From a virus: 64,000 bases of DNA. The position numbers and the translations under genes were made by a program. The stretch is taken from positions 32,001 to 96,000 of the IMG/VR virus record IMGVR_UViG_3300047480_000598. One strand, written 5' to 3'. Below, one piece after another: positions 25,420-57,700 of the stretch (positions are counted from its first letter, which is position 1; each line of letters begins with the position of its first letter). The notes below the pieces were generated by a model. The model worked only from the letters and a program-made list of their open reading frames with translations, was not told the origin of the DNA and ran no database searches.

Positions 25420-25422
25420 ATA
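25416..25422 (+). promoter_or_regulatory. Late promoter box ATAAATA
   Basis: Overlaps H3 stop; upstream of SD GGAG of 25440. Confidence 0.5.
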
Positions 25423-25439
25423 TAGTATGGGAGAAAAAC

Positions 25440-32623: not shown

Positions 32624-32861
32624 CTTCTACAACCTCTGCATATGTTTCTAATGCAAGTTTTAGGCCCATAATTGCACCTTCCATTTTAATAACATCTGTT
32701 GATAATTCTTGTCTTTTTCCGAAATCAATTGATGTAATTCCGTAAGGGTTTAATTTAACATTTGCAAATTCTTCTTCTAATTCAGCTAATTCTTTTTCTG
32801 CGTCAAGTTTTTGAATTTCAACCTTTTGAATTGTTGATTCAATTTGTTCTTTAAAGCTCAT
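32610..32861 (-). CDS. Small coiled-coil hypothetical protein
   Basis: 83 aa, heptad-like E/K/L pattern, SD AAGGAG. Confidence 0.75.
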   Translation of the reverse strand: MSFKEQIESTIQKVEIQKLDAEKELAELEEEFANVKLNPYGITSIDFGKRQELSTDVIKMEGAIMGLKLALETYAEVVEGAAT

Positions 32862-33658: not shown

Positions 33659-35246
33659 AAATTTCGTTTTTTAGAAATTCGTAATGGCTCGGTAATTTAT
33701 TCACATAATCTATAACAAAATCTCTATATTCCTCGTATCTTCTTTTAGTGTATCCAATTTCTTCCTGTCGACGAGTAACTTCGATTCGAGATCCATTAAA
33801 GAAAATTAATTCTTTTGTTGAAATTGATTTAACCCCCATTCCTGCTGCAATAAACATATTTCCAACATACTCACTAGGGTAAGTCATCGAGCTAGTTATG
33901 TTCCCCATAAGGTTAGGATATTGTGCTTGCATTAACATAACGTCTCCCATTTGATCCGGACAATATTCGTTAATTTGTGTACACCATCTCCAATAAGGAG
34001 TATCTGTTCTTCTTGATAGTGCATAATGTTGTGATACAAAGTCTCTAAATTTTAATACTTCATATTCAACTGCAAAATTATATCCTTCGCGCTCGGTTCT
34101 TGTAATATAACCGTCACGTCGATTTAATACTTCGACTAATTTTATAATATTTTCATGCGTAGTTAACAGTCCGGTGGATTCTAGAGGCTCAACAAATCCA
34201 TAACTTAAACCAACTCCTACTACATTAAATAGCCAAGCTCTACGCCTACGACCGTGACGGATCTTAATATGCATCATTTCGGCATTTTCAGCTCTTTCTT
34301 TCGATCCTATTGTTGCTAAATGTTTTCTAAACTCTCTTTTAGCTTCTTCATCTGATACAAATCTAGAAGAATAAACATATCCGGTACCGATTCGATTCCA
34401 TAATGGAATATTCCATACCCACCCGTTATCTAATGCATGACAATCAGTAACATTGTGCATTTCTTTTTCACGGTCTTCGTAAGGAATTCGACATGCCCAT
34501 GCACTATCGTTTGCTAGATATTTGTCAAATGGTCGAAACTCTGAACCCATGATATTTTCGAGTAATAAGGATTTAAATCCAGTACAATCAATCCATAAGT
34601 CCGATTTTAATACAGTCCCATCTGCTAATAAAAGATCAGTTAAATGGCCTAGGGAGTCTTTTTTATGAGAATGTACATCTCCCAATATATGTTTAACTCC
34701 ATTTGGGATAGCAATTGTGTCTTTTAAATATTGTCCTAATAGTTGTGCATCAAGGTGATATGCGGTATCCCATCGAAAATCATAATTTCTTAGAATTCCC
34801 TGTTCGTTTCGAGTTTGTTTGTTGTATTTTGCTAGCATTGTATTGCCAGTTACATAAAATTCTGCAAATGTATCTGGTGTATATTCATCCGGATACATTG
34901 TTGCCAACTCGGACCATGCTTGTACTCCGGCCGGTTTATCAGAAAAGTCTAATCCTGCGCTAAATGGATATTCAAAATGTGTGCCGTCATTGTCTCGAAA
35001 ATTTGTAAATCTAATAGAATTTTTATAAGTAGCATTACATTTTGGCATCCATTCTTCATCTTTAAGCCCTAGTAACGAGAAGAATTTATTAATGTGACCT
35101 AATGTACTTTCTCCTACGCCAATTGTTCCGACTCGAGCTGATTCAACTAGTGTAATGTCTAAATGCGGACATAACTTAGATAATGCTGCTGCTGTCATCC
35201 AGCCACTTGAGCCTCCTCCAACAATTGTTACTGTTTTAATTTGCAT
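33633..35246 (-). CDS. Flavin-dependent halogenase, tryptophan halogenase family (H4)
   Basis: GGGSSG, GVGEST, ATYKNSIRF, GWVWNIP, FVEPLESTG. Confidence 0.95.
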   Translation of the reverse strand: MQIKTVTIVGGGSSGWMTAAALSKLCPHLDITLVESARVGTIGVGESTLGHINKFFSLLGLKDEEWMPKCNATYKNSIRFTNFRDNDGTHFEYPFSAGLDFSDKPAGVQAWSELATMYPDEYTPDTFAEFYVTGNTMLAKYNKQTRNEQGILRNYDFRWDTAYHLDAQLLGQYLKDTIAIPNGVKHILGDVHSHKKDSLGHLTDLLLADGTVLKSDLWIDCTGFKSLLLENIMGSEFRPFDKYLANDSAWACRIPYEDREKEMHNVTDCHALDNGWVWNIPLWNRIGTGYVYSSRFVSDEEAKREFRKHLATIGSKERAENAEMMHIKIRHGRRRRAWLFNVVGVGLSYGFVEPLESTGLLTTHENIIKLVEVLNRRDGYITRTEREGYNFAVEYEVLKFRDFVSQHYALSRRTDTPYWRWCTQINEYCPDQMGDVMLMQAQYPNLMGNITSSMTYPSEYVGNMFIAAGMGVKSISTKELIFFNGSRIEVTRRQEEIGYTKRRYEEYRDFVIDYVNKLPSHYEFLKNEIYGGKDEYI

Positions 35247-35859: not shown

Positions 35860-36714
35860 TTATTTATATTCTTCAACAACAATAATTCCCGGTCTTCCAT
35901 CTGAACCTCTATGTCCGTGAAAATATCCTCCTGTGCCGCCCGATCCCGGAGCAGCATGACCTTGGTGATTGTGAGAAAAGTGACCTCCTTGAGGATGTCC
36001 TGATGGTGCCGGACCTCCGAAGTGACTAGTCCCACCCGGACCAAAACTATGATAATGTGCTCCTCCGCTTCCGGTATGAATATTTAGATCACCGCCGGAC
36101 CCTAATCCGCTTACACCACCTGAATGTTGATTTTGTCTATTTGCTCCATGTCCTCCGCCAGCGGAACAATACGGTCCAAATGAGCTAGTTCCGCCGTCGT
36201 TACCTGCCCCTGAATAATAATTGCCGCCACCGCCGCCACCAATCGTAACTGATACTGAGCTAATTCCACTAACATCTAGTACACGTTCTGAATACCCGCC
36301 TGCTGCTCCTGATTCTCCATGACCGGACGCGCCGCCGCCTCCTCCTTGAACTTTAATTTTAATATATCTCACACCTGCAGGTCTATTCCAAGTTCCGGTA
36401 CTAGTAAATACTTGCATACTTGAAAAACCAATTTGAGCATATTCAAGACCGGTTGCAGAAGAGTTTGTTCTAAGCACAGTGTCAGTACTACCAACGCTTG
36501 ATAACCCCGTGCCTCCTTTTCCAACCGGCATTAAATTAGTTACTCTATTCGAAGTATAATCAACTGCGCCCGTTGCAAACTTTGCTGATGTTACATTTCC
36601 GTCAGCAATATCATTCACTCCTATTGTGTTGTTTGCAAAATCTGAAGAGACTAGCGTCCCGTCAATAATATGTGATCCGGTAATTTGTTTTAAAGTTTGA
36701 TAATCAAATGCCAT
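35860..36714 (-). CDS. Gly/His-rich fibre-tip or adhesin-like protein, paralog 3
   Basis: MAFDYQTLK start, short fibre repeats, FTSTGTWNRPAGV..VQGGGGG Gly-rich domain, ends HGHRGSDGRPGIIVVEEY. Confidence 0.75.
   Translation of the reverse strand: MAFDYQTLKQITGSHIIDGTLVSSDFANNTIGVNDIADGNVTSAKFATGAVDYTSNRVTNLMPVGKGGTGLSSVGSTDTVLRTNSSATGLEYAQIGFSSMQVFTSTGTWNRPAGVRYIKIKVQGGGGGASGHGESGAAGGYSERVLDVSGISSVSVTIGGGGGGNYYSGAGNDGGTSSFGPYCSAGGGHGANRQNQHSGGVSGLGSGGDLNIHTGSGGAHYHSFGPGGTSHFGGPAPSGHPQGGHFSHNHQGHAAPGSGGTGGYFHGHRGSDGRPGIIVVEEYK
35861..35868 (-). promoter_or_regulatory. T4 late promoter consensus TATAAATA for chaperone-like gene
   Basis: Exact consensus embedded in the last codons (TAT AAA TAA) of the upstream gene. 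Confidence 0.55.
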
Positions 36715-36725
36715 ACGTTAGTCTC

Positions 36726-37589
36726 TTAAAAATATTCTGTAATTACGATAATTCCCGGTCTTCCATCTGAACCTCTATGCCCACTGAAATACCCTGATGT
36801 TCCGCCGGTACCTGGAGCAGAATATCCTTGATGATTATGTGAAAAATGACCGCCTTGTGGATGTCCCGCAGGAGCAGGTCCTCCAAAAAATGTACTTCCT
36901 CCCATTCCTGACGACCGCTGTTCGTGGCCTCCACCGCAGCCTTGATATAAATTTAGGTCTCCGCCTGATCCAGTACCACTAACACCACCGTTATGATTGT
37001 TATGTCGATTGCATCCATGTCCGCCGCCCGCTGAGACATATGGGCCAAATGAGCTTCCTGCTCCATTGCCGCCTGCATTATTGTAATAAGTGCCGCCGCC
37101 TCCGCCACCGATCGTAACTGATACCGAGTTAATTCCGTTTTGTGCAACTTCTAACACTCTTTCTGCATAACCTCCCGCAGCTCCTGATTCCCCGTGGCCT
37201 CCCGCGCCTCCGCCCCCGCCTTGAACTTGAATATGAATATATCGTACGCGAGAATCTCTACTCCAAGTTCCATTACTAGTAAATACTTGCATCCTAAATA
37301 TTCCAGAGTTTGCAAAAGTTAATCCGCTTGCTCCGCTGTTCATTGATAATACTTGATATGCGCTACCAATGGCAGTTAATCCTGTGCCTCCTTTAGTTAC
37401 AGGGACAGTCCCTGTAACTGTACTATCTGATAAGATTACAGAATTAACTCCTAATTCTGTATTTGTAATTGTACTATTTGCTATTTTAGCAGTAGTAATA
37501 TTTTGATCAGCTACATCTGTTCCGGTTATTGTATTACTAATAAAAGAATCAGAAGATAAATTTCTTAATGTTTTATAATCGAATGCCAT
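36726..37589 (-). CDS. Gly/His-rich fibre-tip or adhesin-like protein, paralog 2
   Basis: Same architecture; GHPQGGHFSHNHQG, GHRGSDGRPG. Confidence 0.75.
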   Translation of the reverse strand: MAFDYKTLRNLSSDSFISNTITGTDVADQNITTAKIANSTITNTELGVNSVILSDSTVTGTVPVTKGGTGLTAIGSAYQVLSMNSGASGLTFANSGIFRMQVFTSNGTWSRDSRVRYIHIQVQGGGGGAGGHGESGAAGGYAERVLEVAQNGINSVSVTIGGGGGGTYYNNAGGNGAGSSFGPYVSAGGGHGCNRHNNHNGGVSGTGSGGDLNLYQGCGGGHEQRSSGMGGSTFFGGPAPAGHPQGGHFSHNHQGYSAPGTGGTSGYFSGHRGSDGRPGIIVITEYF

Positions 37590-37600
37590 GTGTGATCCTC

Positions 37601-38452
37601 TTAATAGTAACTTGTTATAACAATAATACCAGGTCTTCCATCTGAACCTCTATGTCCATGAAAGTGAGCGCCGGCTCCGCCTGTGCCCGGTGCAGTATGT
37701 CCTTGGTGGTTGTGTGCAAAATGTCCGCCTTGTGGGTGACTACTTGGAGCACCACCGCCAAAAAATGTATCTGCGCAGCTTTGAGCACTATATGCATGAT
37801 GACTAAATCCGCCGCCCATGTGAAGATTTAAATTCCCCCCGGATCCTGCACCGCTTACACCTCCCGAGTGTTGATTTTGTCTATTTGCGCCGTGCCCGCC
37901 TCCGGCCGAAATATATGGTCCAAATGAGCTACCATTACCGTTTCCGCCGGCTCCTGAATAATAAGTGCCGCTGCCTCCTCCTCCGATTGTCACGGCAACT
38001 GTGCTCAAACCTCTAACATCAAGAAATCTTTCAGCATATCCGCCTGCACCGCCACCTTCACCATGTCCGGATCCACCACCGGCACCACCTTGAACTTGGA
38101 CTTTAACATATCGCACATTTGAAGGTCTAGTCCATGTGCCGTTTCCAGTAAAAACTTGTAAACCTTGTATTCCATGAGTATAAAATTGAGGGTTACTACC
38201 GTCACTATATAATGCTTGAAATGCTGACCCTAAGGATGTTCGATTTAGTCCACCGCGGTTAATAGGTAGTGTCCCTGTTGTAGTTGAACTTGAATTATCG
38301 ATAGAACCGGATCCTAATTTTACATTAGTTACATTTCCTGCTGCAATCTGTGTTGCAGTAATATTGTTGTCAGCTATTTCAGCGGTAAGAATAGTCCCAT
38401 CAATAATACCGTCATTTCTAATATTTTTAAGTGATTGATAATCAAATGCCAT
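37601..38452 (-). CDS. Gly/His-rich fibre-tip or adhesin-like protein, paralog 1
   Basis: Same architecture; SHPQGGHFAHNHQGH, HFHGHRGSDGRPG. Confidence 0.75.
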   Translation of the reverse strand: MAFDYQSLKNIRNDGIIDGTILTAEIADNNITATQIAAGNVTNVKLGSGSIDNSSSTTTGTLPINRGGLNRTSLGSAFQALYSDGSNPQFYTHGIQGLQVFTGNGTWTRPSNVRYVKVQVQGGAGGGSGHGEGGGAGGYAERFLDVRGLSTVAVTIGGGGSGTYYSGAGGNGNGSSFGPYISAGGGHGANRQNQHSGGVSGAGSGGNLNLHMGGGFSHHAYSAQSCADTFFGGGAPSSHPQGGHFAHNHQGHTAPGTGGAGAHFHGHRGSDGRPGIIVITSYY

Positions 38453-42600: not shown

Positions 42601-45600
42601 AGAGCCTGTGCCTGTTGTTACATTAACTGCGGTTCCACCGGCTATAGTGCTTATAGTAAATTGTGTAGTTCCGTTTAATGCTTTAACATAATATAAAGTA
42701 TTTGCAGTAATATTACCAAAAGTAGTTCCGGTAAAATAAATTGGCATGTCAACATATAATGTTGCGTTTGATGCAACATTTACATAATCTCCTGTATCAG
42801 TGGTAGATGTAACTGTTATTGAAGTAAAACTATCTTTGTAAACTGTTGCAATTTTACTTCCGCCTGAATAAGTTAAAATATTAGCATATTGACCAGCACC
42901 TGTTCCTGCGGTTAATTGTACTCTCATACCGTTATATGAATTTGTAAGTGCAGTATCAGTTGCAGCAATTGTAATAGATGTAGTATCACCTGTTTGTGCA
43001 GCATTAGATTGTGTTGCATAGCTAGTACCTCCAACACCGTTATCATCATTTAAATCGATAATTCTAGTTTCAAATACTGCCCCGTCGCGGAATTCATCCC
43101 CGGTTGCTGCTGCATTGTACCCTGCACCGCTTAAAGTATAACTAACATTAGTGTATGTTGTACCAGCATTTCCAAATTCTACACGGTGAATTTCGGTTAC
43201 GCCGTCTGTAATTACTAAAGTAGCTTGTGCTTGATTGTAGCGATTATCAACCGTAGCATATAATGGAACTTCATGCACATCTACACCTTCAGCAATGACA
43301 CCATATGTACCATAAGAGCTGTTACCGTTTGTTGCACGAATGCGACCGCCTAATTCTGCTAAGTATCCTGAATATCCATAGTAGTTAAACACTGATACAA
43401 GTTCTGTTAACGAATCTTCACCAGTACACCATACTCCAATACCGTCACTAATGATTGTTGTAAAGTCATTTTTAACCATTGACTTATTACCATATCGATG
43501 CAATGCGGCATCAATCTTAGCACCTGAGCATCCTGCTCCAAACATTGTGCAGTTTTGTGAATAGTGCGAACGACTTGTAACCCATACTCGACTATCGAAC
43601 GGTCCAAATCCTGGATTAAGAGCAACATATGCTCCGGCAGTCGGACGACGAGTACCAAAATCATTAAGCTCGGTTAAATCTCCAGACAACCCAGACATTG
43701 TTAAGTTTCTTAATCCGGATGCATTACTAACCCAGAACATATCCGATGCTTCTGAGCCGCTTACTGCATTGTTATAGAGCAATGCAGCATGTGTGCCTTT
43801 ATGATTTCCCGGTAATTGCAAGTCGTCAACTAATGCTAGTACATATTCTCCCATATCTCTCTTACAAGATACTTCGTCAAAAGAATACACAATAACTGCC
43901 GCACCAGTGTCTGTAGTAACAGTTAGCGTACTAGTACCATTAATGGTATCAGTTAGTGTTAATGTAGTCGAAGACGGTGTTGTTTTTACATAATATTGTA
44001 TTCCAAAATCTAATCCACCTAAAATGTCTCCAATTGTTGCTGTAACTACACTAGTAGATGTTCCTGGATCAAACACCGAACCATTATAGCTTGCTGAAAC
44101 TGTAATTTGAGTTGTATTTTCTACAGTTTTAACATAATATACCGTTCCGGCTACTAAATTGCCTAATGTACCGTTTGTAAATGTGATCTTACTTCCTGTA
44201 ATAATACCTGTTGTTGATAATAATGTAATAAGATTACCAACCGAAGAAGAGCTAGTTGCCGAAGTTGAAATTACATTATTAGGGAATATAACCGGATCTC
44301 CAACTGTTAAGTTATGTGCAGAAGAAGTAGTTAGTACACTAGTTGTTGAGGATGTACTAATAACAATACCTGTAAATGTATTTTTAATCCATGCTGTAGC
44401 TTCATTTTCTAAGAATTGCTTATTTGCTCTTAAGACTTCAACAGCATAAGTGTTGCCTAAGTTATTGAGATAGGTCACTGATCCATTAACATCAGGAGTC
44501 TCACCAACTCCTTTATCAAGAATGTTAAGAACAATTGTCATATTCTCATTTACCGATGCAAGTGCATCACTATCGGAAACAACAATATCTTTTAATTCGT
44601 CTTTTAAGAATCTAAATGCATTAAGAGTTGCTCTTTTTTGATCATCTAGTACTTTACTTGCTTGTGCTTGATAATATGCCATTCCTGATTTAATCGAGCG
44701 GAAGTTTGACCCTAACATCATGTCATATGCAACAGCGTCAATAATATATCCTACATCTCTCTCACAAGTGGTTGAGTCATAGTTAAGATTTGGATAATTT
44801 ATTTCAATATATGATGTAACTGCGGTTTGAACTGTTGATTTTGCAGAAATTAATGCAGTTGCTTGTGTAACTAAGTTAGTCGCAACCCACGAAGTACTCG
44901 GTAGAGTTTCTGCCGGAGCACTTGCGATTCCGCTGTTAATTGTAGTTGTTATACCGTCAATTAAGCTACCTACTACTGTTGCACTTGTTGCATCTCCACT
45001 AGTTCCAATGATATAAGAAGTATTAGTTTGCAACGGAGTGTACGAACTTAAACCTCCGTTTGCAATATCTTGAACAATTGTTTTTAAATTGCCGTATGCT
45101 GCAAGCGTAGCTGTCTTATCGTTAGTATCAATTTGTAATGCATCAGTTAACTTTGAATAATACGAAATTCCTGCTTGACGAGTTGCAAAATTCCCTCCAT
45201 ATGTCATATCGTATCTAATTGAATCAACAATGTAACCAACATCCCTTGCGCAAGTTAAATGGTCGTATACTACAGCAGGATAGTTGTCGTTAATGTATTT
45301 CAATGTTTCAGCTTGAATAAACTTTTTATTTTCAAAAATAAGTTTAGCAGCAGCAAAGTTTTCTGCGTCTATTCCGGTAAAATCTGGCCATAAGAATCGA
45401 GGTACAGCACCTCCATCGATAGTTCCGATAATGTCGTCGATAACTGTCGAAGCTTTAGATATTGCTCCCCCGACTGCATAGCCTTTAAGTTTATATTTTA
45501 AGAACTTAACTAATCCTAAACTTGCATGTTTTTGATTAGATATAACAATTTCAGCCGAATCAATAGCTCTGTAATAGCTTCTACCAACTGTAATTGCTGC

Positions 45601-48600
45601 AACATTTGACTTAAACAGCATGTCGTACATAATTGCATCAACCATGTATCCAACATCTCGATAACATACATCTTCATCATAAGACATCGATTGGAAGAAT
45701 TTTTGTACATACCCTAATGCATCATTTTGAACTTCAGTCTTTCTTGCTTGCATTAACTCATATGCTAATGTAGAAGCATTATCAGTTGGTAATGTAGGAG
45801 AAATAGTAGACGGTGATGTGCCGTTTGTTATCCAATCAATTACATCTTGAACGCGATCTTGTGCGAAAGTTGCAGATCCAGCGTTACCACCGGTACCTGA
45901 AAGTACTTGAAGAGTTGAATTTCCTGCTTGAGGAGTTACTGCTAGTTTTTTTGCAATATCGTCAATGATTGATTTAAGATGTGTATAAGCAGCTAATGTA
46001 GCTGTTAATTCTGTCGAATTAATAGTTCTTACAATTCCAGACCAATAAGCACTTCCTGCAATTAAACTTTGCGTGTTTCCGCCATATGTTAAGTCATATC
46101 GAATTGCATCAAGAATGTATCCTACATCACGTTGGCATGATGCTTGTCCGGTAGCACCTAACGCTGTCCAGACTGAACTGTAATTATTTTCAATATACTT
46201 ACTTACGTCTGCTTTAATAAATGCATAGTTATTAGCAAGTTGTGTTCTTGCATTTTCGTAATTAACATCTAAATCTGCCGGGTCAGTGATGATCTCGTTC
46301 GGAGTAGAATTTAATCCATTATTAATAATATCATATATTGTATTTGTACTAACTTCTACCCAATCAGCGTTAACAATATTACCAACATACCCCGAAGTTT
46401 CATACGCTAGTTCTTTAACAAAAGATCCAACTACTCCGATAGTTCCTAATGTAGGTTGTAATTGTTGAGCAAGAACTACGCCAGTTGATGTTAACGCTCT
46501 GTGATAACTCATTGCATTCCAGCAACTTAAGAAGTTACTTCCGAACATCATGTCGTAACAGACTGCATCTACAATGAAGCCAATATCACGTTGGCATGTT
46601 ATTTCGTTGTATATTAATTCTGGATAAGTGGAATTTATCCAGTTAGTTACTGTAGTTTTAATTAAAGTTTTTTCTGCTTGAATTGCAGTATTTGCATTAG
46701 AAAAAGCTGCGTGAACCCATGTAATGTCCGGAGAGACCGTTGTTGGCTCAATACCTGTATCTATTGTATCATATAATTCTTGTATGCGATTCTGTGCAAA
46801 AGTTGCTGCTCCGGCAGATCCGGCAGATCCGGCAGTTATTTGAGTTTCTAAATTACCCGATGACTTGGTGATCGATAGTCCTTTAACTATGTCGTCGATA
46901 ATTGTTTTAACATATGCCCATACTGCAAGTGCCTGTGCTTCTTCTCCAGTTTCAACTAGTACTCCGTTGCTGTAATATGATCTTGCAGCAATCTGAGTTG
47001 CTAAATTTCCGCCATATGTTAAGTCATAATGTAATGCATCAACAATATATCCTACATCTCTTTCACATGTAGCTTGGTCATATACAAATCCGCTAAATGG
47101 AGCAATAGGTCCGGCAATTTGTACATTAATCCATGCAGTTATTTCCGCTTTTAGGAACGCTTTATTTAAAAGAACAAGTCTTGCTGCATCGTAATAACCT
47201 GCAGTAAATGCGTTACCAGTACCACCTGTCGGAACTGGTAAATTAAAGGTTGGAACGGCAGTTAACCCGTTTGCAATAATTGATGTCATTGCATTTAAGC
47301 TAGTAGTAATCGAATCTGTTCCACCACTTGCATCTAATACTGCTAACCCAATAGCGAACATTAAGCCGATAGTTTCTTCCTTTTGATCAGATATTACTAC
47401 GCCGGTTGATGTTAAGCCTCTGTAATAACTTAATGCACTCCATTGTGTTAAGAAGTTGCTGTCAAATACCATATCGTATGCAAGTGCTTCAACTATATAT
47501 CCAATGTCTCTTGAACATAAAGTTTGATCAAATTGCAGTAATGGATAATTCGTAGTAACCCAATTAATCCCAATGGTTTGAATTTGAGATTTTCGTGCAA
47601 GTATTGATGTTAATGCAGTAACTTTATTAGACAATACATTTGTTGTGTTAGGAAGGACAGGTATCGGGTTATTTCCTGTTTTAATAGTGTTGTACATATC
47701 AATAATTCTTGATTGTGCAAATGTTCCTGCACCCGAGCTTCCTGCAGTTCCTGAATCGTCTTGAGATAATGCATTGCCTGATGTTTTAGTAATTAACACA
47801 CCTTGAGCAATGTCACTAATAATATTTCTTAGTCGAAGTTGTGTTGCAAGTGCTGCTTTCTTTTCTGTTAGAGGTTCAACAAAATCTCCTTTTGAATAGT
47901 AAGCACGGGCTGCAATTTGTGTTGCTAAATTTCCGCCATAAGTTAAATCGTATTCTAATGCATCTACAATATATCCAACGTCTCTTGCACATGCAACTGT
48001 ATCATACGATAACCCGTTGTATGTTGCTGTAATATATGAGATAGTGCTTGCCTGTATCGAAGATTTAGCACTTTGAAGACTAGATAATGTAGATTGAACA
48101 GCAATTGATTCAGCCGATGCACTCGGATATGTAATCGCCGGGGCAGAACCGGTGTTAATAATTCCGGTAATAATTGTAACTAATGCATCAATAGAAGTGT
48201 CGGCAGTTCCGCTTGTATAAGTTTTCATTAAACCGCCAAGCTGATTGTATGCAGCAATTGTTGCAGCCTTTTCACCGGATGCAATTTCTAATACTCCAAA
48301 TGAATAGTATGCTAATCCTGCAACAATAGATTGATAATTTCCGCCATATTGTACATCATATGTAATTGCATCAATAATATATCCAGTATCTCTTGCGCAC
48401 TTTGCTTGTTGTTCTGTGCTTAATCCGGCCCACACTGCATCGTAAGGGGAAGTTGAGCTAAGATATGTTGTAACACCGGAAATTAAGGTAGCTCGATTAG
48501 TTTGTAATGCTAACGCATCGGCCACGGATGTAGCATCAGATGTACCATTATCAGGCCATACATACACAGGAACCGCAGTTAATCCGTTTTCTAAAATATT

Positions 48601-51600
48601 ATAAACGTTATCAAATGCTTGTTCTGCTTGTAATAATAATGAACTATGTACATAATCAGATGCTGCGGTTTTTACAAAATTAATAACATCTAAAGTTTGA
48701 AATAGTTGATTGCTTGTTACTGGGTCTGATTGAATGCGATAATATGCTTCACCTGCAACACTTGATGCAAAGTTTGATCCTGTTACCAGATCGTAACATA
48801 CTGCATCGATAATTAATCCAACATCTCTTGAACATGTTGCAGAGTCATAATTGCTATTATAATTAACGAAATTGTAATTAACATATGCAATTGCTTCTGC
48901 TTTTAAAAACTCTTTGTTTGCTACAATTAGTCGTCGTGCGTTGTAATAACCATCGTCGTATCCTATTGGATCTACGATAGTAACAGGAACAGTTGTAGAC
49001 CCGTCTTCTAAAATATCTTGTGCAGTGATAACATTTGCTCTTACTGACTCTGATGCTATACTTTCGTAATTATTAAACACATATTGTTGTTCTGCAGAGT
49101 TACCAATCGAAGCTTCTACTATATTGTTTGAAACTAAGTTAGGCACAAGTGCTTTAATTCTATTTAATGCAGATATTGTTTTTGGTTTGTCGTTAACAAG
49201 ATTAGTAATAGCTGAATTTGGTGATATATTTGTTGATCGTAATTCATCGCCTACAACTGCTACATGATTTGGTATTATAATCGGTAACACTTCAACAAAT
49301 GTACCAGTTTTAACACTAATAGTGGTATTACCATAAGAAGCAGGAGCTATAGCCGATGTATCTCCAGCTAAAATACCGTCAGTAATTATAGTTAAAAGTG
49401 CAATAGCAGTATCACTTGAACTTTCTTCGGCTACATATGAAGTTTCAATTACTTGAGATGCTATACCTGATGTTAAGCCATTCAATTCTTGATAATTTAT
49501 AATTGGAGGACAATTGTTAATAACATTCGCCACTAAGTTCTTCATATAGTTATATGCAGCAACCGTTTGAGTTATTTGTTGCCCAAAATTACTATTGATA
49601 TAAGAGCTACCTGATGTTGTATAATATGCTTTTGCTGCGTTTGTAACATATTCGTTACCGCCGTGACCTAAATCATAGATAACTGCATCTAATAATATAC
49701 CTACATCTCGTTGACAGAAATTGTAATCGTATGATAGAGAGCCGATCATACTTCCGGAATCGTCACTTAACCCAAATATTAATCCACCTTGTGTTGTGCT
49801 AATAGTAAAATGAGTACTATCGATAACGGTTTTTACAAAGTACTTTGTGTTTGCTGTAACACCGCCGAGTGTTCCGTTAAATTCAATAGGCATATTTGCT
49901 ACTAAATTACTAGTGTCATTAGCAGTAAATTCTCCAGTTGATGCTACTGATGCGCTTATCGAAACTGAATATGTGCTTGTAACCCAGTTGCTAACTTCTT
50001 TCATAATAAACTGTTTATTCATTCTTAGAAGTTCTATAGCATTTGTATTACGATAACCTCTTTCAATTTGAGTACATGCGTATCTTACGGTTCTCCAAGG
50101 TTTATCAATTGTTAATCCGCGGCCCGGATCTCTGTCGTCGACTCCAGTAGGTGCAACATATACTACATTGTTAATAATTCCATAATATTCCCATGAAGGG
50201 TATCCGTTATTAACACGTAGTAGCTGTCCATCTGTTCCAATTGGGAGTCTAGTCGGTCCATTATTCCCAAAGTAATAAGTATCCCCTTCGGTTGTTAGGA
50301 CTGCTGACTCACTACCGGCAGCAAGAAGATTCCAAAATTCTGCTGTTGTATCTTGATCTGGTCTGTTTGTCGATGTTGCTATATGTGCGATGATTGCTAC
50401 ATAACTGTTTGCTCCAAAGAAAACAATGTCTCCTTTGATATAGCTGTCACCGTTAGTCCATGTTACTGCATATCCGGTTGCCGATAATGTTGCAATGTAA
50501 CCCCCTACTAAAGATTCGACAGTTATTATTGCATCATTAATCGGACTTAATCCGCCGAGATCGCTTCCTGAAATTAAGATTGTATCACCAACTTCATAAT
50601 TTGTTCCGGTAGATGAATAGTCTACCGAATAAGATGTTCCGTTTCTAGTAATATCGAATGTCGCACCAGATCCGATACCTGTTAATGTAATACCACTAAT
50701 ATCTGTATACGTAACTGGAGAATTGATCCACTTAAATCCTGAATTTAATTGATGCCAATAAGATGTATTTGGAGGAGTTTGATTTAAATTATCAGTAATA
50801 GAAAGATATGTATATCCTCCAAGTCTTACTACATCTCCAACTTTGTATGTTGTAGAATTATTCCAATCACCGACAAAATTAAATCCTGTAGTGTATAACT
50901 GCCAATCAATAGTTGCAGTTGCACCAGTTGACGGGTTTGAATTAGAATTGTTAGTTTTAGCAATATACGAATATCCACCGTACGTAACAACATCACCGAT
51001 CTGGTAGACGGTTAATGAGTTCCATGAATCTTCAAACTCTAGTCCTTCAACAAATACACTCCATTTAGTGTCGTCAAATGTTGTATCAGAAGTATGATTT
51101 GTAGTGCAAATCCAAGATCCGGATCCGTATTTGACTATATCATTTTCTTTATATCTTACAGAGTCGGTCCATTCTCCGAGATAAACAATGCCATTGTTAA
51201 AATTAGTCCAATAATTTTGGTCATCTTCTAGACCTAATAAGGAAGTTGCAGCAGATGTATGGGCAGTATTACAGAAATAAGTGATTCCTCCGTATACAAC
51301 AAAGTCATTAACTCGATATCTAGTAGTAGTGGTCCAAGATCCGGTCCAGTAAAATGACGACGCTATTAAGTCCCATTTAGAATTTGTTTGAGTCGGTAGG
51401 TCTTGATCTGCTTCTAACCCTAACGTAGTGGTTGCTGCTGACGTGTGTGCTTCGTTTGCTACATATACATTTCCGCCGTACTTAACTTGGTCTCCAACAT
51501 TATAATATGTTGATGTTTCCCAGTCTCCTCTCCAACTTAACCCGTCACTTACTAAGTGCCATTTTGGTGGAATAAAGTCGCCATCTGTAACAAATAACGA

Positions 51601-51735
51601 CGAACTTGTATGGTTTACTACACATATCCATGTTTTACCAGCGTTACTAATAACATCATCTACAACATATGATGTACTAGGAGTCCACTCGCCTTGCCAT
51701 ACAAATTTAATTCGACCTAATCTAAACTCTGCCAT
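39640..51735 (-). CDS. Giant virion fibre/appendage protein (4031 aa): CBM5/12-like N-terminal repeats, beta-helix scaffold, 12 CxRD phycobiliprotein-like helical repeats, YGNG beta-propeller repeats
   Basis: W..T.Y..GD.V.YGG..Y.C..HTS repeats; YVAPTG..PWRT, VGDELR; 12x C-x-R-D; W..V.YGNG.FVA repeats; C-term RLTGHDFL..TSTDQDGNF shared with 51800..59326. Confidence 0.85.
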   Translation of the reverse strand: MAEFRLGRIKFVWQGEWTPSTSYVVDDVISNAGKTWICVVNHTSSSLFVTDGDFIPPKWHLVSDGLSWRGDWETSTYYNVGDQVKYGGNVYVANEAHTSAATTTLGLEADQDLPTQTNSKWDLIASSFYWTGSWTTTTRYRVNDFVVYGGITYFCNTAHTSAATSLLGLEDDQNYWTNFNNGIVYLGEWTDSVRYKENDIVKYGSGSWICTTNHTSDTTFDDTKWSVFVEGLEFEDSWNSLTVYQIGDVVTYGGYSYIAKTNNSNSNPSTGATATIDWQLYTTGFNFVGDWNNSTTYKVGDVVRLGGYTYLSITDNLNQTPPNTSYWHQLNSGFKWINSPVTYTDISGITLTGIGSGATFDITRNGTSYSVDYSSTGTNYEVGDTILISGSDLGGLSPINDAIITVESLVGGYIATLSATGYAVTWTNGDSYIKGDIVFFGANSYVAIIAHIATSTNRPDQDTTAEFWNLLAAGSESAVLTTEGDTYYFGNNGPTRLPIGTDGQLLRVNNGYPSWEYYGIINNVVYVAPTGVDDRDPGRGLTIDKPWRTVRYACTQIERGYRNTNAIELLRMNKQFIMKEVSNWVTSTYSVSISASVASTGEFTANDTSNLVANMPIEFNGTLGGVTANTKYFVKTVIDSTHFTISTTQGGLIFGLSDDSGSMIGSLSYDYNFCQRDVGILLDAVIYDLGHGGNEYVTNAAKAYYTTSGSSYINSNFGQQITQTVAAYNYMKNLVANVINNCPPIINYQELNGLTSGIASQVIETSYVAEESSSDTAIALLTIITDGILAGDTSAIAPASYGNTTISVKTGTFVEVLPIIIPNHVAVVGDELRSTNISPNSAITNLVNDKPKTISALNRIKALVPNLVSNNIVEASIGNSAEQQYVFNNYESIASESVRANVITAQDILEDGSTTVPVTIVDPIGYDDGYYNARRLIVANKEFLKAEAIAYVNYNFVNYNSNYDSATCSRDVGLIIDAVCYDLVTGSNFASSVAGEAYYRIQSDPVTSNQLFQTLDVINFVKTAASDYVHSSLLLQAEQAFDNVYNILENGLTAVPVYVWPDNGTSDATSVADALALQTNRATLISGVTTYLSSTSPYDAVWAGLSTEQQAKCARDTGYIIDAITYDVQYGGNYQSIVAGLAYYSFGVLEIASGEKAATIAAYNQLGGLMKTYTSGTADTSIDALVTIITGIINTGSAPAITYPSASAESIAVQSTLSSLQSAKSSIQASTISYITATYNGLSYDTVACARDVGYIVDALEYDLTYGGNLATQIAARAYYSKGDFVEPLTEKKAALATQLRLRNIISDIAQGVLITKTSGNALSQDDSGTAGSSGAGTFAQSRIIDMYNTIKTGNNPIPVLPNTTNVLSNKVTALTSILARKSQIQTIGINWVTTNYPLLQFDQTLCSRDIGYIVEALAYDMVFDSNFLTQWSALSYYRGLTSTGVVISDQKEETIGLMFAIGLAVLDASGGTDSITTSLNAMTSIIANGLTAVPTFNLPVPTGGTGNAFTAGYYDAARLVLLNKAFLKAEITAWINVQIAGPIAPFSGFVYDQATCERDVGYIVDALHYDLTYGGNLATQIAARSYYSNGVLVETGEEAQALAVWAYVKTIIDDIVKGLSITKSSGNLETQITAGSAGSAGAATFAQNRIQELYDTIDTGIEPTTVSPDITWVHAAFSNANTAIQAEKTLIKTTVTNWINSTYPELIYNEITCQRDIGFIVDAVCYDMMFGSNFLSCWNAMSYHRALTSTGVVLAQQLQPTLGTIGVVGSFVKELAYETSGYVGNIVNADWVEVSTNTIYDIINNGLNSTPNEIITDPADLDVNYENARTQLANNYAFIKADVSKYIENNYSSVWTALGATGQASCQRDVGYILDAIRYDLTYGGNTQSLIAGSAYWSGIVRTINSTELTATLAAYTHLKSIIDDIAKKLAVTPQAGNSTLQVLSGTGGNAGSATFAQDRVQDVIDWITNGTSPSTISPTLPTDNASTLAYELMQARKTEVQNDALGYVQKFFQSMSYDEDVCYRDVGYMVDAIMYDMLFKSNVAAITVGRSYYRAIDSAEIVISNQKHASLGLVKFLKYKLKGYAVGGAISKASTVIDDIIGTIDGGAVPRFLWPDFTGIDAENFAAAKLIFENKKFIQAETLKYINDNYPAVVYDHLTCARDVGYIVDSIRYDMTYGGNFATRQAGISYYSKLTDALQIDTNDKTATLAAYGNLKTIVQDIANGGLSSYTPLQTNTSYIIGTSGDATSATVVGSLIDGITTTINSGIASAPAETLPSTSWVATNLVTQATALISAKSTVQTAVTSYIEINYPNLNYDSTTCERDVGYIIDAVAYDMMLGSNFRSIKSGMAYYQAQASKVLDDQKRATLNAFRFLKDELKDIVVSDSDALASVNENMTIVLNILDKGVGETPDVNGSVTYLNNLGNTYAVEVLRANKQFLENEATAWIKNTFTGIVISTSSTTSVLTTSSAHNLTVGDPVIFPNNVISTSATSSSSVGNLITLLSTTGIITGSKITFTNGTLGNLVAGTVYYVKTVENTTQITVSASYNGSVFDPGTSTSVVTATIGDILGGLDFGIQYYVKTTPSSTTLTLTDTINGTSTLTVTTDTGAAVIVYSFDEVSCKRDMGEYVLALVDDLQLPGNHKGTHAALLYNNAVSGSEASDMFWVSNASGLRNLTMSGLSGDLTELNDFGTRRPTAGAYVALNPGFGPFDSRVWVTSRSHYSQNCTMFGAGCSGAKIDAALHRYGNKSMVKNDFTTIISDGIGVWCTGEDSLTELVSVFNYYGYSGYLAELGGRIRATNGNSSYGTYGVIAEGVDVHEVPLYATVDNRYNQAQATLVITDGVTEIHRVEFGNAGTTYTNVSYTLSGAGYNAAATGDEFRDGAVFETRIIDLNDDNGVGGTSYATQSNAAQTGDTTSITIAATDTALTNSYNGMRVQLTAGTGAGQYANILTYSGGSKIATVYKDSFTSITVTSTTDTGDYVNVASNATLYVDMPIYFTGTTFGNITANTLYYVKALNGTTQFTISTIAGGTAVNVTTGTGSMTLLAAGWDHVIPGRTIENALDLTTQYIIEPTINYTAPGYRATARTLSSTAAWKDITYGDSKYLAIAGSGQSTTYSTTGTTWATAGSLSASASWTDVVYGGGEGAVATVTIGGLGGQGAVLQAVLGVPNTTGAATDDQVASVTVINGGAGYTTPPVIVFTSVSGGTGAVATCAVLNGEIVSVTVTIPGSGYNAAPTVAAVTDRVTIATSVDWGRNYFSTPSVTVSDPFTGSAWSSGGVVTLNQTIYYVNTGVKHWYTVTTGGTFTTTGPIHTSGSASNGTAVLLYIGTTAILTPTLENAGVKTLTITNSGKGYTTTPTVTILDTGARYVAIATGSSDNCYTTSAGVLAGSAWTAGSALPASDFVSLTYGNGVYVAVGGTNSAASSTNGSTWTGRSIPTLGSGTYSAVVYGNGTFVAISTGNLVTAVSSNGNSWTAGGNLPTSTTWSSIAYGNGRFVAIESGGRNVAISTDKGTSWVAATPGLPSSQTWNKVSYGQGLFLAVSSGGSVAATSPDGINWTVRALSSSSNWISAQFGNTNDTPVWVAISNTSGTVACSIKTGAQALGRVKVSSGVVTEVRMIEPGSGYPTGTVTAATGGATDSITVSDTTNLIDSQPIEFTGCSSAGLVENITYYVIGSTIVTDTSFKVSATAGSSTPVNLTTVTGLSGTYRAGPIFTVTDPNKVKSAAFRVRMGDGALGNPSFSNRGTDMTTATAEPNGDGYADLYQPSSFINVEGLYDIPEAGANVEFDSLPGVYFKLVTITNELGSLGSKTATFQINPALSVLQAPVHGDRVTARIKYSQVRLTGHDFLYIGTGGKERTNYPNVDISTAIQANQTVYSAGGRVFFTSTDQDGNFNVGNLFGVQQATGTATLNASAFNLSGLNSLQLGSVELGVGSAIITQFSTDPFFTADSDSIVPTQRAIKSYITSQIGGGQSSLNVNTLTSGIVYIAGNSISTTTGEAINVTTKMNFTGGIDGSPVALGFFMQR
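43800..50050 (-). repeat. Intragenic array of 12 helical ~140-160 aa repeats (CxRD motif)
   Basis: Cys codons at about 49715, 48833, 48398, 47990, 47516, 47066, 46595, 46136, 45665, 45251, 44765 and 43865. Confidence 0.9.
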
Positions 51736-51799: not shown

Positions 51800-54700
51800 T
51801 TACCTACGATTCCATGTCTTCATAAAGTACGACATTGCCATACCGTCACCGTCCCATCCTGCAAATTCTCCTTGCATTCTTGCCATAACTGGAATATTCA
51901 CTACCCAGCCCGCTGACCCTTCAGGAATAGTACTTCTAATCTTATCTGCACCACCAACTACAACAGTACCAGCAATTAACTGTCCAGTAAACGTATTAGA
52001 TCCACCTTGTGATAGACGACTAGTTAAGTACGCTTTAATTGCTCTTTGTGTTGGAATAATATTATTACTATTAGCAATAAATGTTGTATCTGTACTAAAT
52101 TGTCGAACAACAACACTTGATCCTCCAACTGCTATGCCACCTAATGATAATGTTTCTAATCCAGTTAACCCAAATTGTGTTGCACTTAAAGTTACAATGC
52201 CAGTTGCTTGTTCGACTCCGAACAAGTCTCCAACTTTAAAGTTTCCGTCTTGATCTGTACTTGTATAAAAAACACGACCAAAATTTACTTCAACTGCTTG
52301 ATCTTGTGGTGCTAATACAGTATCTTCGGGTAAGTTTGGATAATTTGACTGTATTGCATTTCCATAACCGACATTTAAGAAATCATGTCCAGTTAGTCGA
52401 CATTGACTATATTTGGTTCTAATAATTAATGCTGCTTCATGTTCAGGGCTTTTTGCAACAGTCATCTCTGGAGATATTTCGATATTTGCCATAATATTCG
52501 GAGCCATAGTTCCATAAACTGGAGTTGCACGAGTGACTTTGTAAACAGTGCTATTGTCAGCAATTACTAAATTGTCACCTGGTGACGGTAATGCCGATAA
52601 ATTTTTAACAATTAATCTTAATCCTGACTGGAACGTATCTGCATATCCGCCACCGTTGATTGTTACTATTGTAGAATTAGTGTTATAATCTTGGCCTTTG
52701 TTAATAAATGTAGGATTAGCAAGAACCCCTTTTCCTATCCTCACTGATGTAGTTACACTTAATGTTATGTTAGGATCAGTAATTGTAACTGATGGCGCTG
52801 TTGAATAATTTGATCCAGGTTCAAACATAGTGATAGAATCAATAGTACCCGATGTTACGTTGACTCTTCCTTTTGTAGTCGATCCGGCTTTGATAATACT
52901 TCCTGATGTTGTTCCTCCAATTGCTACAAAAATACCATCATTAGTTGTTGGATCTAATCCAAACACAACATTATTAAAAGAACTGCTATCAATAGACCGG
53001 AGTGTCCATGAATAACCATCTTCTGTAGTATATGCATTTCCTGAAGAACTACTGCCTGCAACAAATATTCCTTGTCCGTATACGATTCTATCAACTCCTA
53101 ATATAGTATAAGGAGATTCATTCCAAGTAACACCGTCAGAACTATATGCCGGACTTACATTATCTGAGCTTGCTACAGAAACAAACAAACTGTTACCGTA
53201 CGACACACTTGCCCATGTAGACGAACTCGGCATAGTCGAACTGACCCAATTAATGCCATCTGTGCTGTATGCCGCTGTTGTTGTACCTGATGCTACAGCA
53301 ACAAATCGGCCTCTGCCGTAAGTTAATCCAGTCCATGTTGCAGAAGGTAAACTTGCTCCGTTGTTCCATGTTTTTCCGTAATCTGTAGAATATGCAGACT
53401 TATTAGTTCCTGTTGCTATTGCTACAAATTTACCATTCCCATATACAACATGCGACCATGTTGATGCCGACGGCATTGTAGTTGATTTCCACCCTTCTCC
53501 ATTGTTTATAGAATAAAGTGCAGTTGTAGAAGTCATACCTCCGGATGAGATAATAACCCATCGACCGTCCCCAAAAGCAATTCCTGACCACGTGTTAGAG
53601 GACGGTAATGACATTGAATCCCATGTATTACCCCCATCATCAGAAATTCCTGCAATTGCATTGCCATCCGGAACTGCAATAAATTTCTGATTTCCGTATG
53701 CAATGTAACTCCAGGATGTTCCTAATGCCGCAGTATTAATTGTTTTGTTTGTTTGACTAAATGACGGTTTAGTATAGGAAATTCTTGGTTCAACATAATA
53801 AACTGCCGAATTATCTAATTGAGTTTCGATAGAAGTTCCCGGATGTATGTGATCCCATCCTACTGCTGCAATATTCATCGACCCTGTATCTGTTTTTAAT
53901 GTAATAGGAGATCCGCCTAATGAAGAGCTAACAGTAAATGTTGTTGGACTATCGATTGTCTTAACATAATAGTTTGTTCCTTTTGTTACATCACCGAATA
54001 AGCTAGTTGAATATGTACCATTCATCGATCCGTAACCAATCGAAATACTAGTCTTAGTGTTAGTGCTGACTCCCTCCATGCTTCCGGATCCGTTTGACAA
54101 CTCGGTCGGAAGTGGAGTCGTTCTAACTAATACATCACAAACTGATGTTGACAAGTTAACAGCTGATCCGCCCGGAGAGACGCTAATAGTAAATGTCGTC
54201 TCATCATTAATAGCAAGAATGTAATATGTAATTCCTGTCGTGATTCCGCCGGTAGTCTTTCCGATAAATTGGATCGGATTGTTGGCAATAAATCCAGAAG
54301 TTGAATCAACTGTAATTAGATTAGTTATTGTTTCGGTAGAAGTTGCTGCTGTTTCGATTAACGAACCTACTACAGTAAAGTTACCTGAATTTATAACTTT
54401 GTTAATGTAGTATACTGTGTCTGCAACAATATTTCCAAATACAGTTCCTGTAAATTTAATGGGATTTAATGGAACTAATTGGGTTGTCGACGATGTAGTT
54501 AGATAATTGGTCCCTGTTGCTGTACCGGTTACGGTTACAGTCACTAACGATGACGAAATAGTAAATTTTGATGGGCTAACAACTTCATTGATATAATAGG
54601 TCGTTCCTACACTTAACCCTCCGATAGATACTCCGGTAAATGTTATAGGCATAGTTATTTGCATATTAGAAGTAGATCCAGCTAGATAATTATTATACCC

Positions 54701-57700
54701 AGGGAAGGTCATAGTCATTGACCCTGTTCCGCTGTTTAATAGCCAAACATTACCAAATATTTCAGTACTAATATTAAATGTAGTAGTATCTAAAATCTCT
54801 TTTACATAATATGTAAAATCAGTAGTAACGCCGCCATACACTGATCCTGAAAATCTAATAGGCATATTAATTGTTAACTTTGCAGTATTATCTACAGTCA
54901 TCGTATTAGTTGATCCGCCGATAACTGTGGTCACAGTTAATGAATCTAACCCTGTAGTAGTAACATTGGTATTATAATATGTCGGAATAAACTGAACTAT
55001 TTGATTTAGATATAATGTACTTGTAGTATAACCAGGATTTAAAGTTAGTATTCCGGTTGTATTATCTGTAGAAATTACATTTAAAATCGAAAATGATTCT
55101 TTTAAAATAGATGCAGTCTTAGTTACTGCATCATCAAATGAAGAAATATAGCCATATTGTCCTGCACCGGTACCTGATTCAATAAACAACCTCATACCGA
55201 TATAGTTAGTTTCAGTATTTGTATCCGATCCTGCTAATAAAATACTTAAATCGTCGCCGCCTTGTGCGTTGTTAGACGACACTAAGTAACCACGACCGCC
55301 GACTCCGGTTCCTGTGTCAGTTATACGAGTTTCAAATACTGCATTTGATCGAGTTTCGTCCCCTAATAAATCAGCTCCAATTCCCGAACCAGTTACAGTA
55401 AAGTTAGCATTACTAGTAAATTGATTCGTTTTAGTTTCTAAATAAAATGTAGGATCATCGGTTAGTTGAACTTGTGATCCGTACACTCTACTACTTCCTG
55501 TAAGTCCTGATTTACCTCGAGGGTATATGCGTACTTGTAAGTTATTATTTAGAGCAATCTTATCATAAACCGTCATCCATATTCTGTACCATCCGTTTGT
55601 AAGCTCTAACTTATCGTATGTCTTTGGAAGAGCACCGTTCGAATCGATTGCTGCACTTAAATCTCCTGTAGAAAAATTATAAGTTAAGGTAGTAGTAGCA
55701 GTAGTATCCCCACTAAAAATTGCACTAATGTCAATCGATGACGAGGTTCCTTGCTTTACATAAATGCTAATTGTATAACTTTGATTACTATTTGTAGGTA
55801 CTGTTCCACTTACACTAACATCTAAAATTGCCGAACCTGCAAGAGAAGTAACTGTTAAATAACAATCGTTAGTCCCGTCTGCTCCGCCAAATGTACTTCC
55901 TGGAATTCTTAATTCATTACCAGTAACATACCCACTTCCTCCATTATTAACAACCGCAGTATATCCTGTACTACCAACAGTAATATCAAAAGTTGCATTA
56001 ACCCCCGACCCGGATATGTTTAAAGTTTCAATATTAGTATATTCTCCCCCGGGTGGTAAAACATTGATATTTTGATAAATGTAACTAGCATCAGTACTCG
56101 ATGTTGTTCCTGTTAGAGTCCAGGCATCAGTCTCGTTAAACGGAGATGTTGAATTTTTTTGAATTACTACGTTACCGTCGGTACTCCATGATGTAAAAAT
56201 ATTACTATTTTTTATAAGATTTGTTGTTTGTTCAATATAGTTTGAACCTGCATTTACATATTCAATAGACAATAGTTCAGCAGATGACCCGAAAGCACTT
56301 TGAACACTCGCTTGTACTTGAGCTGATCTATTATCAATTAAACCGGTAATTGGAACTTCGGTATCATCATATCCTTCGGCAATAACGCCATATGTACCAT
56401 AAGAGCTGTTACCGTTTGTTGCACGAATACGACCGCCGTTTTCTGCAAAATAACCTGCATAGTTGTAATAAGAGAATACAGAAACACATTCAGTTAACGA
56501 CTGTGTACCGGTGCACCAAACTCCCACTCCGTCGGAAAGAATTTGTGTGTAATCGTTAGCGACCATTGAACGATTGCCACCGTTATGTAATGTTCCATCA
56601 ATCTTCATACCGGCACAACCGATACCAAAAGTTGTTACATTTTGACAATACGGGCTTCTATTAATAATCCATGCTCTAGTATCATCCGGTCCTGTTCCAG
56701 GATCTAAACTTGTGTAAGATCCACCAGTCGGTCTACGGGTCGTAAAAGTATTAGGGCTGCTTAATGAGCCTGCTAATCCAGTTAATGTCATATTACGAAT
56801 ACCTGTCGCATTTCTCATATAGAACATATCTTTTAAGCAGTCACCAGCATATACTGTCATATTTCCGATGCCAGACGTTAAGGTAACAGGGTCACCGCCT
56901 TCGGTTAAAGAAATCGTAACAGTCTTGTTAATAATTGATGCAACATAATAGGTCACTCCGAGATTAATTCCGCCAAAATCGTCATTAATACTCGATGCCG
57001 AAAATTGTATTGGCATTCCTACTTCTAATCCTACGACTGATAAGAATGTAAATCGATTTGTTAACGAACTACATGATTTAGTAAGAGTAGTAAATCTTGT
57101 TATAGGTTCTACTACTGCGCCTCTTAACTCGTCTCCTACTAATGCGGTATTATCCGGAATGACAATTGGTAATTCTTCAGAAAATGTACCAGTCTTAACA
57201 AAAATAGTTGCAGTTGCTCCGATATTAATTCTAGGAAGTTTTTCAGTAGTTGCATGTTCAATAGAAAAAATTACTAGATCCAACAATGTAGATATTTCAG
57301 TGTAGGAATTAACTTCGCTAACAATTGATAGATTTTTATTCTGAGGGACTATAAATTCCGGAAGATCGTACATAAACTCCCAACTTTCAATAGCATCCGG
57401 AGTGTCAGTATTATCATCAATTAAACTTGTAAAATAACCGTCTAAGTAATATACAACGTCTCCTGTTTGATATGTAGTTCCTGAATCCCATAGAATATTT
57501 TCGTTTTGATAACTTATAGTAGGATCAGTATTATCTAAAATAAATTCAATTAACAACTTTAATCTTTGTAATGATGCAACAATATATGGTTGAGCAGCAT
57601 CGGTTGCGTCATTAAAAAATGTAGTAGTGCTATTTTCTTTAAAATATGCTTTTGTAGCAGTAATAATTCTACTGTTACTTCCTCGAACAATATCATGAGA

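Follow-up and report, generated by a model that had tools for sequence, protein, structure and literature searches.

We analyzed a 64-kb window (positions 32,001 to 96,000) of the IMG/VR virus record IMGVR_UViG_3300047480_000598 (labeled G000), itself a 162-kb fragment; coordinates below are those of the window unless another record is named. An open reading frame (ORF) at 39640-51735 on the minus strand encodes a giant tail-fiber-type protein of 4,031 amino acids, and profile comparisons and predicted structures indicate that its central ~1,800 residues very probably form a tandem array of globin-fold domains. The repeats are, with the same high confidence, remote homologues of phycobiliproteins, to which sequence profiles and the modeled fold both point, and they carry a C-x-R-D motif. 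In phycobiliproteins and in the bilin biosynthesis-associated globins (BBAGs) BBAG-1 and BBAG-3, a linear tetrapyrrole is linked by a thioether to a Cys and held by an Arg and an Asp. In many phycobiliproteins the attachment Cys is part of a CXRD motif; BBAG-1 and BBAG-3 also have this motif and need no lyase to bind bilins (Rockwell et al. 2023, PMC10151467). The best single explanation that we can offer, which we place ahead of an apo-globin spacer and hold tentatively at a little under an even chance, is that the fiber contains an array of bilin-binding-globin homologues, most of which bind a bilin.

Phycobiliprotein-like repeats in a giant fiber protein

The 12 C-x-R-D motifs begin at residues 674, 968, 1113, 1249, 1407, 1557, 1714, 1867, 2024, 2162, 2324, and 2624, with codons running from nucleotide 49716 to 43866, where the amino acid composition would predict 0.09 motifs per 4,031 residues. 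An initial annotation of this DNA had described a protein of this length with 12 such motifs within 43800-50050 and a spacing of 136 to 162 residues for repeats 2 to 11; the ORF, the motif positions, and the measured gaps agree with it, and the peptides that it quoted are found in the protein. Its count of 12 helical repeats stands for ten of them. The repeat hidden Markov model (HMM) spans repeats 2 to 11 in full and repeats 1 and 12 only in part, so we count ten full-length copies and two that are partial or degenerate (Table 1); repeat 12 gave no match to PF00502 (Phycobilisome). Repeats 4 to 11 are two subtypes in alternation: in the identity matrix, repeats 4, 6, 8, and 10 are mutually 42-53% identical, repeats 5, 7, 9, and 11 are mutually 35-41% identical, and identities across the subtypes are 27-40%. 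In one subtype, a Ser/Gly/Thr-rich loop of ~25 residues separates the last two helices.

The assignment as a tail fiber or virion structural protein rests on matches to the PHROG tail-fiber families phrog_9851 (E = 6e-167), phrog_4527, and phrog_5342 and on the neighboring genes, which include a second fiber gene, fiber-assembly-like genes, and a baseplate wedge gene. No Pfam family matched the C-terminal 1,298 residues at E ≤ 0.01; this region is probably the distal or receptor-binding part. A single further C.RD occurs among the 201 ORFs of the record, in a 199-residue 2-oxoglutarate (2OG)-Fe(II) oxygenase (30649-31248), which we rejected as an additional domain copy and take for a chance motif.

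Two profiles were used to place the repeats: A1, built from the ten window repeats, and A2, a deeper one built from 67 diverse repeats. PF00502 matched the entire protein at 29.3 bits (cutoff, 22.2; E = 9.5e-7) and the single window repeats at 15-17 bits, below the cutoff, with an identical register in each. Searched against 24,736 Pfam models, 16 of the 67 single repeats matched PF00502 and 4 matched the runner-up family. Overall, the repeats match PF00502 as remote homologues rather than as typical members. When A1 was compared with all PDB sequences, every one of the 35 listed chains was a phycobiliprotein (best E = 4e-4), and the repeat Cys fell on Cys84 of KCARDIGYY; with A2, all 22 were phycobiliproteins, namely phycocyanin alpha chains (best E = 0.02). 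Alignment of the 67 repeats by hhalign with four Acaryochloris CpcA/CpcB sequences gave a probability of 81% and an E value of 1.2e-5 over 95 columns. The motif thus aligned on Cys84 lies in the E helix in 12/12 window repeats.

An AlphaFold2 (AF2) model of repeat 10 has six helices. In a structural search against representatives, its top eight matches were all phycobiliproteins (Z = 14.7-12.5), the best being the phycoerythrin 5aqd_M (Z = 14.7; root-mean-square deviation, 3.3; 144 residues aligned), and allophycocyanin 8or7_A (Z = 14.6) and the bilin-binding domain of ApcE, 4xxi_A (Z = 13.9), were also matched. Globin-coupled sensors and heme globin sensors (Z = 12-9.5) and photocobilin (Z = 11.9) ranked below them. 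Foldseek produced the same ranking, with template-modeling (TM) scores of 0.6-0.69 and E ≥ 2.5e-3. A model of repeats 8 and 9 as a pair (predicted local distance difference test [pLDDT], 73.6; predicted TM score [pTM], 0.71) has six helices per domain; against the PDB it returned single-domain phycobiliprotein or smURFP matches only, besides spurious isoprenoid-synthase rows (TM ~0.2). A search of the ESM Atlas yielded no usable match. The phycobiliprotein-like globin reading, which the initial annotation had reached by eye and proposed to check by predicting the fold of single repeats, is therefore upheld by Pfam, the PDB profile search, hhalign, and the structural match of a globin-like model to phycobiliproteins.

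We weighed these results against the alternative that the repeats are an unrelated six-helix bundle and that the match is an artifact of a short motif and of the AlphaFold training set. High scores come easily to helical folds, and the AlphaFold training data included phycobiliproteins. The sequence similarity is modest (15-29 bits) and centered on the CxRD helix, the single window repeats stay below the Pfam cutoff, the deeper profile scores the PDB worse than A1 does, and Foldseek gave no PDB match at E ≤ 1e-3. Against chance or convergence, four independent methods agree, and each list contains phycobiliproteins alone; different repeats match in one register, and precomputed PF00502 matches, along with Mtd_N matches, are present on many relatives. 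We consider this alternative very improbable.

Conservation and distribution of the repeat family

A profile search of 1.84 billion proteins recovered 1,375 cluster representatives at E ≤ 1e-3, with 1 to 36 copies per protein and the highest number in proteins of ~6,000 residues. The family is large and unnamed. Full-text literature searches (without supplements) found no phage fiber described as having a domain that is phycobiliprotein-like or binds a chromophore, nor did the literature that names BBAGs together with phages describe a phage-fiber domain of this kind. Conservation was counted over 842 distinct repeats, ~30-40% identical, from 128 related proteins: the Cys is kept in 94%, the Arg in 97%, and the Asp in 97%, and all three occur together in 790 of 842, in the E helix. 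Arg-Asp persists without the Cys in 25 repeats. Exactly one Cys is present in 682 of the 842, so an intradomain disulfide is not the reason for its retention. No alignment column has His in more than 11% of the repeats; the proximal His of heme globins and globin-coupled sensors is missing, and these domains are therefore not heme globins. Two invariants are specific to the phage family and have no counterpart in phycobiliproteins, D(+14) (99%) and Y(+30) (97%). We note that some proteins (P0011, P0013, P0030, and others) have a shortened domain, with a spacing of only 108 residues and the C-x-R-D retained.

Among 50,697 cultured-phage records searched, all 178 that matched were cyanophages, including S-PM2, syn9, S-RSM4, and P-HM2, in which the homologues are annotated as tail fiber, short tail fiber, baseplate wedge, or structural protein. 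A megablast search with the region found no match among cultured phages. From the cellular genomes of 185,579 species came just nine loci, every one of them on a bin or metagenome-assembled-genome contig, of mixed taxa; they are most likely mis-binned phage DNA that carries no host signal. A near-length search for stand-alone forms returned seven short proteins, five of them on contigs of <1.3 kb, which decides neither way on free single-domain proteins. G051, a complete relative of 381,886 bp with 42 predicted tRNAs, has three separate ORFs with the domain (1,637, 852, and 325 residues), the shortest of which is single-copy and may be near a stand-alone form.

The source record is rated 44% complete, and the completeness values of 45 repeat-bearing IMG/VR contigs imply, by arithmetic, genomes of ~350-375 kb. 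G051 is collinear with G000 over about 111-285 kb. Repeats were present in 8 of 11 contigs chosen by terminase and are a nearly universal, clade-wide trait; one terminase-chosen contig (G097, 133 kb) has neither repeats nor a ferredoxin-dependent bilin reductase (FDBR) and, lacking the repeats, would appear to run away from the fiber module. The photosystem gene psbA was found neither in the G000 record nor in any of the 45 repeat-bearing contigs or the five large relatives, including the complete G051, so the host of this phage and its clade may not be a cyanobacterium. A 129-kb contig with repeats and pcyX (G043) is classed as a provirus by IMG/VR; should this classification hold, the flanking DNA could point to a host.

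These patterns can also be read as the record of a bilin-binding globin whose descendant has become an apo-globin spacer, a rigid helical module that sets fiber length and in which folding or interdomain contacts would account for the conservation of C-x-R-D, D(+14), and Y(+30). The range in copy number is what a length module would be expected to show, and the phage-only invariants fit a structural role. So do the Cys-less copies, which besides the 25 counted above include 16 of 88 domains in the cpeT-adjacent genes described below and one in the adjoining 2,508-residue protein. In addition, most contigs of the clade show no bilin gene, and the large relatives have no lyase. Retention of a lone Cys in 94% of repeats that are only ~30-40% identical would, however, be unusual for a purely structural virion residue, and a spacer leaves unexplained both the adjacency to cpeT and the restriction of cultured matches to cyanophages. 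We regard the spacer as a serious possibility, though not a likely one.

A different ligand could instead occupy the same site, such as host-scavenged biliverdin or heme or a host-surface molecule, with a role in receptor recognition or redox sensing. BBAG-2 globins bind biliverdin, whereas they lack the CXRD that the phage repeats keep (PMC10151467). Heme globin sensors and photocobilin appear in the structural list, and the hosts of the clade may not be cyanobacteria. The missing His argues against heme ligation, and the position of the repeats in mid-fiber, away from the distal tip where receptor binding would be expected, argues against recognition. Another ligand at this site seems improbable to us.

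Bilin genes, CpeT, and light-dependent adsorption

The initial annotation had seen no bilin synthesis or lyase gene in the window, which is right and extends to the whole 162-kb record; the survey of relatives that it suggested gave a mixed answer, with pcyX in some of them and cpeT beside repeat genes on the one hand and a counter-example, the Pelagibacter phage Mosig, on the other. Heme oxygenase with an adjacent FDBR occurs in 3 of the 45 repeat-bearing contigs. The FDBR of one of these (G025) is PcyX, with E = 7.7e-63 to 5owg_A compared with 1e-13 to PcyA, and a heme oxygenase gene adjoins it. Conversely, 13 of 50 pcyX-bearing viral contigs have repeats, among them one complete genome, G051 (382 kb). 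The fraction grows with contig size: 2 of 33 below 60 kb, 5 of 11 at 60-77 kb, and 6 of 6 at ≥100 kb. In G051, pcyX lies at about 31-35 kb, outside the stretch collinear with G000, so its absence from the G000 fragment says little.

A homologue of the lyase CpeT (PF06206) is encoded by S-PM2, P-HM1, and P-HM2, all of which have repeats, and not by P-SSM2, Mosig, or P-SSP7, which have none. In S-PM2, cpeT has the same orientation as the giant repeat-bearing gene annotated as "short tail fiber protein" and ends 1.45 kb upstream of it. In 20 of 21 IMG/VR cpeT loci, defined by a CpeT 56-100% identical to that of S-PM2, the first repeat lies 0.8-2.3 kb downstream of cpeT in the same orientation; in the remaining locus, the sequence stops 189 bp after cpeT. 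Coordinates compared by hand show the same arrangement, with cpeT 2-6.5 kb ahead of the repeats, for 17 named cyanophages, whose CpeT identities go down to 36%. Of the 88 domains in the cpeT-adjacent genes, CxRD is present in 71, and another 16 keep xRD without the Cys. As a separate observation, in the S-PM2 RefSeq record (NC_006820.1, 168556-173383), 16 tRNA features lie within the 11.3-kb "short tail fiber protein" coding sequence, and all of them have the locus tag of that sequence, which looks like an error of coordinates or of annotation.

Liu et al. (2019, PMC6628666) report no dark adsorption for P-HM1 and P-HM2, a requirement of S-PM2 adsorption for light and not for photosynthesis, and adsorption in the dark for P-SSM2 and P-SSP7. 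The repeats occur in all three phages of the light-requiring group and in neither of the two that adsorb in the dark.

From the repeats, their fold and homology, the conserved motif, and the gene neighborhoods, we infer bilin binding, a source of the bilin, and a possible response to light, as follows. In the infected cell, during assembly, most domains would take up a bilin at the Cys of C-x-R-D. Attachment would be self-catalyzed, as in ApcE and the BBAGs, or, in phages that encode a CpeT homologue, aided by that protein. Cyanophages would obtain the pigment from the host, and some large relatives would make it with a hemO-pcyX cassette of their own. The finished fiber would then carry a row of chromophores, and light-dependent control of fiber conformation and adsorption would be a plausible use. 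A more specific proposal is that virions carry their own bilin photoreceptor: the phycobiliprotein-like fibers would be chromophorylated in the infected cell and changed by light such that adsorption takes place only in light, with phage CpeT as the lyase in cyanomyoviruses and with phycoerythrobilin (PEB) or phycocyanobilin (PCB) supplied by hemO-pcyX in large phages of non-cyanobacterial hosts. This full scheme we judge unlikely.

A number of observations weigh against bilin binding and its use in light sensing. No FDBR, heme oxygenase, or CpeT is encoded anywhere in the 162-kb record, FDBR is found in only 3/45 repeat-chosen and 0/11 terminase-chosen contigs, and CpeS and CpeT are absent from all five of the largest relatives. 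Because the repeats are a clade-wide trait, their co-occurrence with pcyX discriminates little. Mosig, whose complete 141-kb genome has hemO and a pcyX-like gene, has no repeats (best HMM score, 11 bits; no ORF of at least 60 residues with C.RD), and for this reason we rejected a strict functional pairing of pcyX with the repeats; P-SSM2 likewise has an FDBR and no repeats. Among phage records, ~178 have repeats and only 66 have cpeT, which in P-HM1 and P-HM2 lies ~35 kb from the repeats. Since T4-like cyanophage genomes are broadly collinear, cpeT may have stayed next to the fiber gene by common descent, without selection for the adjacency. Known T-type lyases serve Cys155 of beta subunits and not the Cys84 site (review, PMC10452541). 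Lastly, the comparison of adsorption in light and dark covers five phages, two of them near-identical (P-HM1 and P-HM2), and mixes myoviruses with a podovirus.

Gene neighborhood and comparison with known systems

The window is a structural module of a T4-like myovirus, with terminase, sheath, tube, neck, and baseplate wedge genes. The features of the fiber gene and of its immediate neighbors are collected in Table 1. The tail-fiber-assembly-like paralogues coincide with the G+C maximum of the window, 0.457 at 36-38 kb compared with ~0.35 elsewhere.

Table 1. Positions of the giant fiber gene, its parts, and adjoining genes in the 64-kb window
Feature	Position	Strand	Evidence
Giant tail-fiber-type virion protein gene, 4,031 residues	39640..51735	-	ORF; PHROG tail-fiber families; collinear with the 1,637-residue repeat ORF of G051
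N-terminal 625 residues with seven CBM_5_12-type repeats	49861..51735	-	Pfam PF02839, E 2.7e-38, 7 stretches
Repeat 1 (CQRD, residue 674), partial globin-like copy	49336..49860	-	HMM residues 666-742, E 1.5e-14; PF00502 15.2 bits alone
Repeats 2-11, the ten complete copies of the phycobiliprotein-like globin domain, all with C-x-R-D	44386..48978	-	Alignment A1; HMM E 1e-41 to 5e-50 per repeat
Repeat 10 (CARD, residue 2162), modeled domain	44911..45396	-	AF2 pLDDT 84.3, pTM 0.83
Repeat 12 (CKRD, residue 2624), degenerate, behind a beta-rich insert	43537..44010	-	HMM residues 2617-2658 only, E 7e-4
C-terminal 1,298 residues	39640..43536	-	phrog_701 (virion structural protein) covers residues 2129-3050
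Adjoining fiber gene, 2,508 residues, with one Cys-less domain copy (STKRD, Cys to Thr)	51800..59326	-	A1 HMM residues 487-575, E 2.8e-11; CBM_5_12 in 4 stretches
Three paralogous tandem tail-fiber-assembly-like genes, downstream of the giant gene	35860..38452	-	phrog_863, E 1e-47 to 2e-55

Between the neck/sheath and fiber genes, the stretch from 19036 to 35246 holds at least eight 2OG-Fe(II)-oxygenase-like ORFs and four tryptophan-halogenase-like genes, three of the latter within 20893-25419 and the fourth at 33633-35246; a gene for an AMP-binding enzyme (12318-13613) lies near this island. In the pelagiphage Mosig, the hemO-pcyX cassette sits in the equivalent oxygenase island beside the neck genes. 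A "ferrochelatase" (phrog_2954; 25643-26278) was considered as a tetrapyrrole gene and rejected, as Pfam gives just a weak match to 2OG-Fe(II) oxygenases. Outside the window, the record contains a second giant ORF (127482-142079 of G000, plus strand; 4,865 residues) without C.RD, which is 37.5% identical over 3,937 residues to G051 217230-230798.

Bilin-binding globins have so far been antenna subunits and, since 2023, the small bacterial BBAG proteins, and a tandem array of them in a virus particle, if real, would be a new use of the fold. It would bear on three questions: why phages carry cpeT, why phages of non-cyanobacterial hosts make phycoerythrobilin, and why adsorption of some cyanophages needs light independently of photosynthesis. 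If true, the photoreceptor proposal would account for why S-PM2 and P-HM2 need light to adsorb, identify what phage CpeT acts on, and explain in part why phages make bilins. Domains that attach bilins by themselves could also serve as compact fluorescent tags.

Phycobiliproteins (PF00502; for example, C-phycocyanin alpha and the ApcE domain) provide the best sequence and structure matches to the fiber repeats and share their globin-type six-helix fold. The C-x-R-D occupies the same helix and register as Cys84, Arg86, and Asp87, a Gly-Gly turn follows this helix in both, and the two alternating subtypes of the fiber recall alpha/beta pairs. The fiber repeats are only ~13-17% identical to phycobiliproteins, however, and have D(+14) and Y(+30) as invariants of their own. 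Structural alignments begin near residue 26 of the phycobiliproteins and so do not cover the N-terminal hairpin used for alpha/beta pairing. The fiber domains are fused head to tail in a virion chain, whereas phycobiliproteins are free antenna subunits.

BBAG-1 and BBAG-3 of non-photosynthetic bacteria are phycobiliprotein paralogues that also stand outside the antenna context and have CXRD, and they are lyase-free and associated with heme oxygenase and FDBR (PMC10151467). Likened by description rather than by sequence comparison, they may be the best functional analogy for phages whose hosts perhaps make no phycobilins. BBAGs are single-domain, cytoplasmic proteins encoded in small gene clusters, whereas the fiber domains are arranged in tandem in a virion protein; the same study names phages only for PcyX and PebS. 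The accepted purpose of phage bilin genes is support of the host antenna or, in non-cyanobacterial hosts, is for hemO and FDBR "still enigmatic" (2024, PMC11480375), and section 14 of that article names no phage-encoded acceptor protein. The products of these genes (hemO-pcyX, with the PcyX structure 5OWG, and cyanophage CpeT) are enzymes or chaperones rather than a fiber domain, and they meet the repeats described here in two settings, with pcyX in relatives of this phage and cpeT beside the fiber gene.

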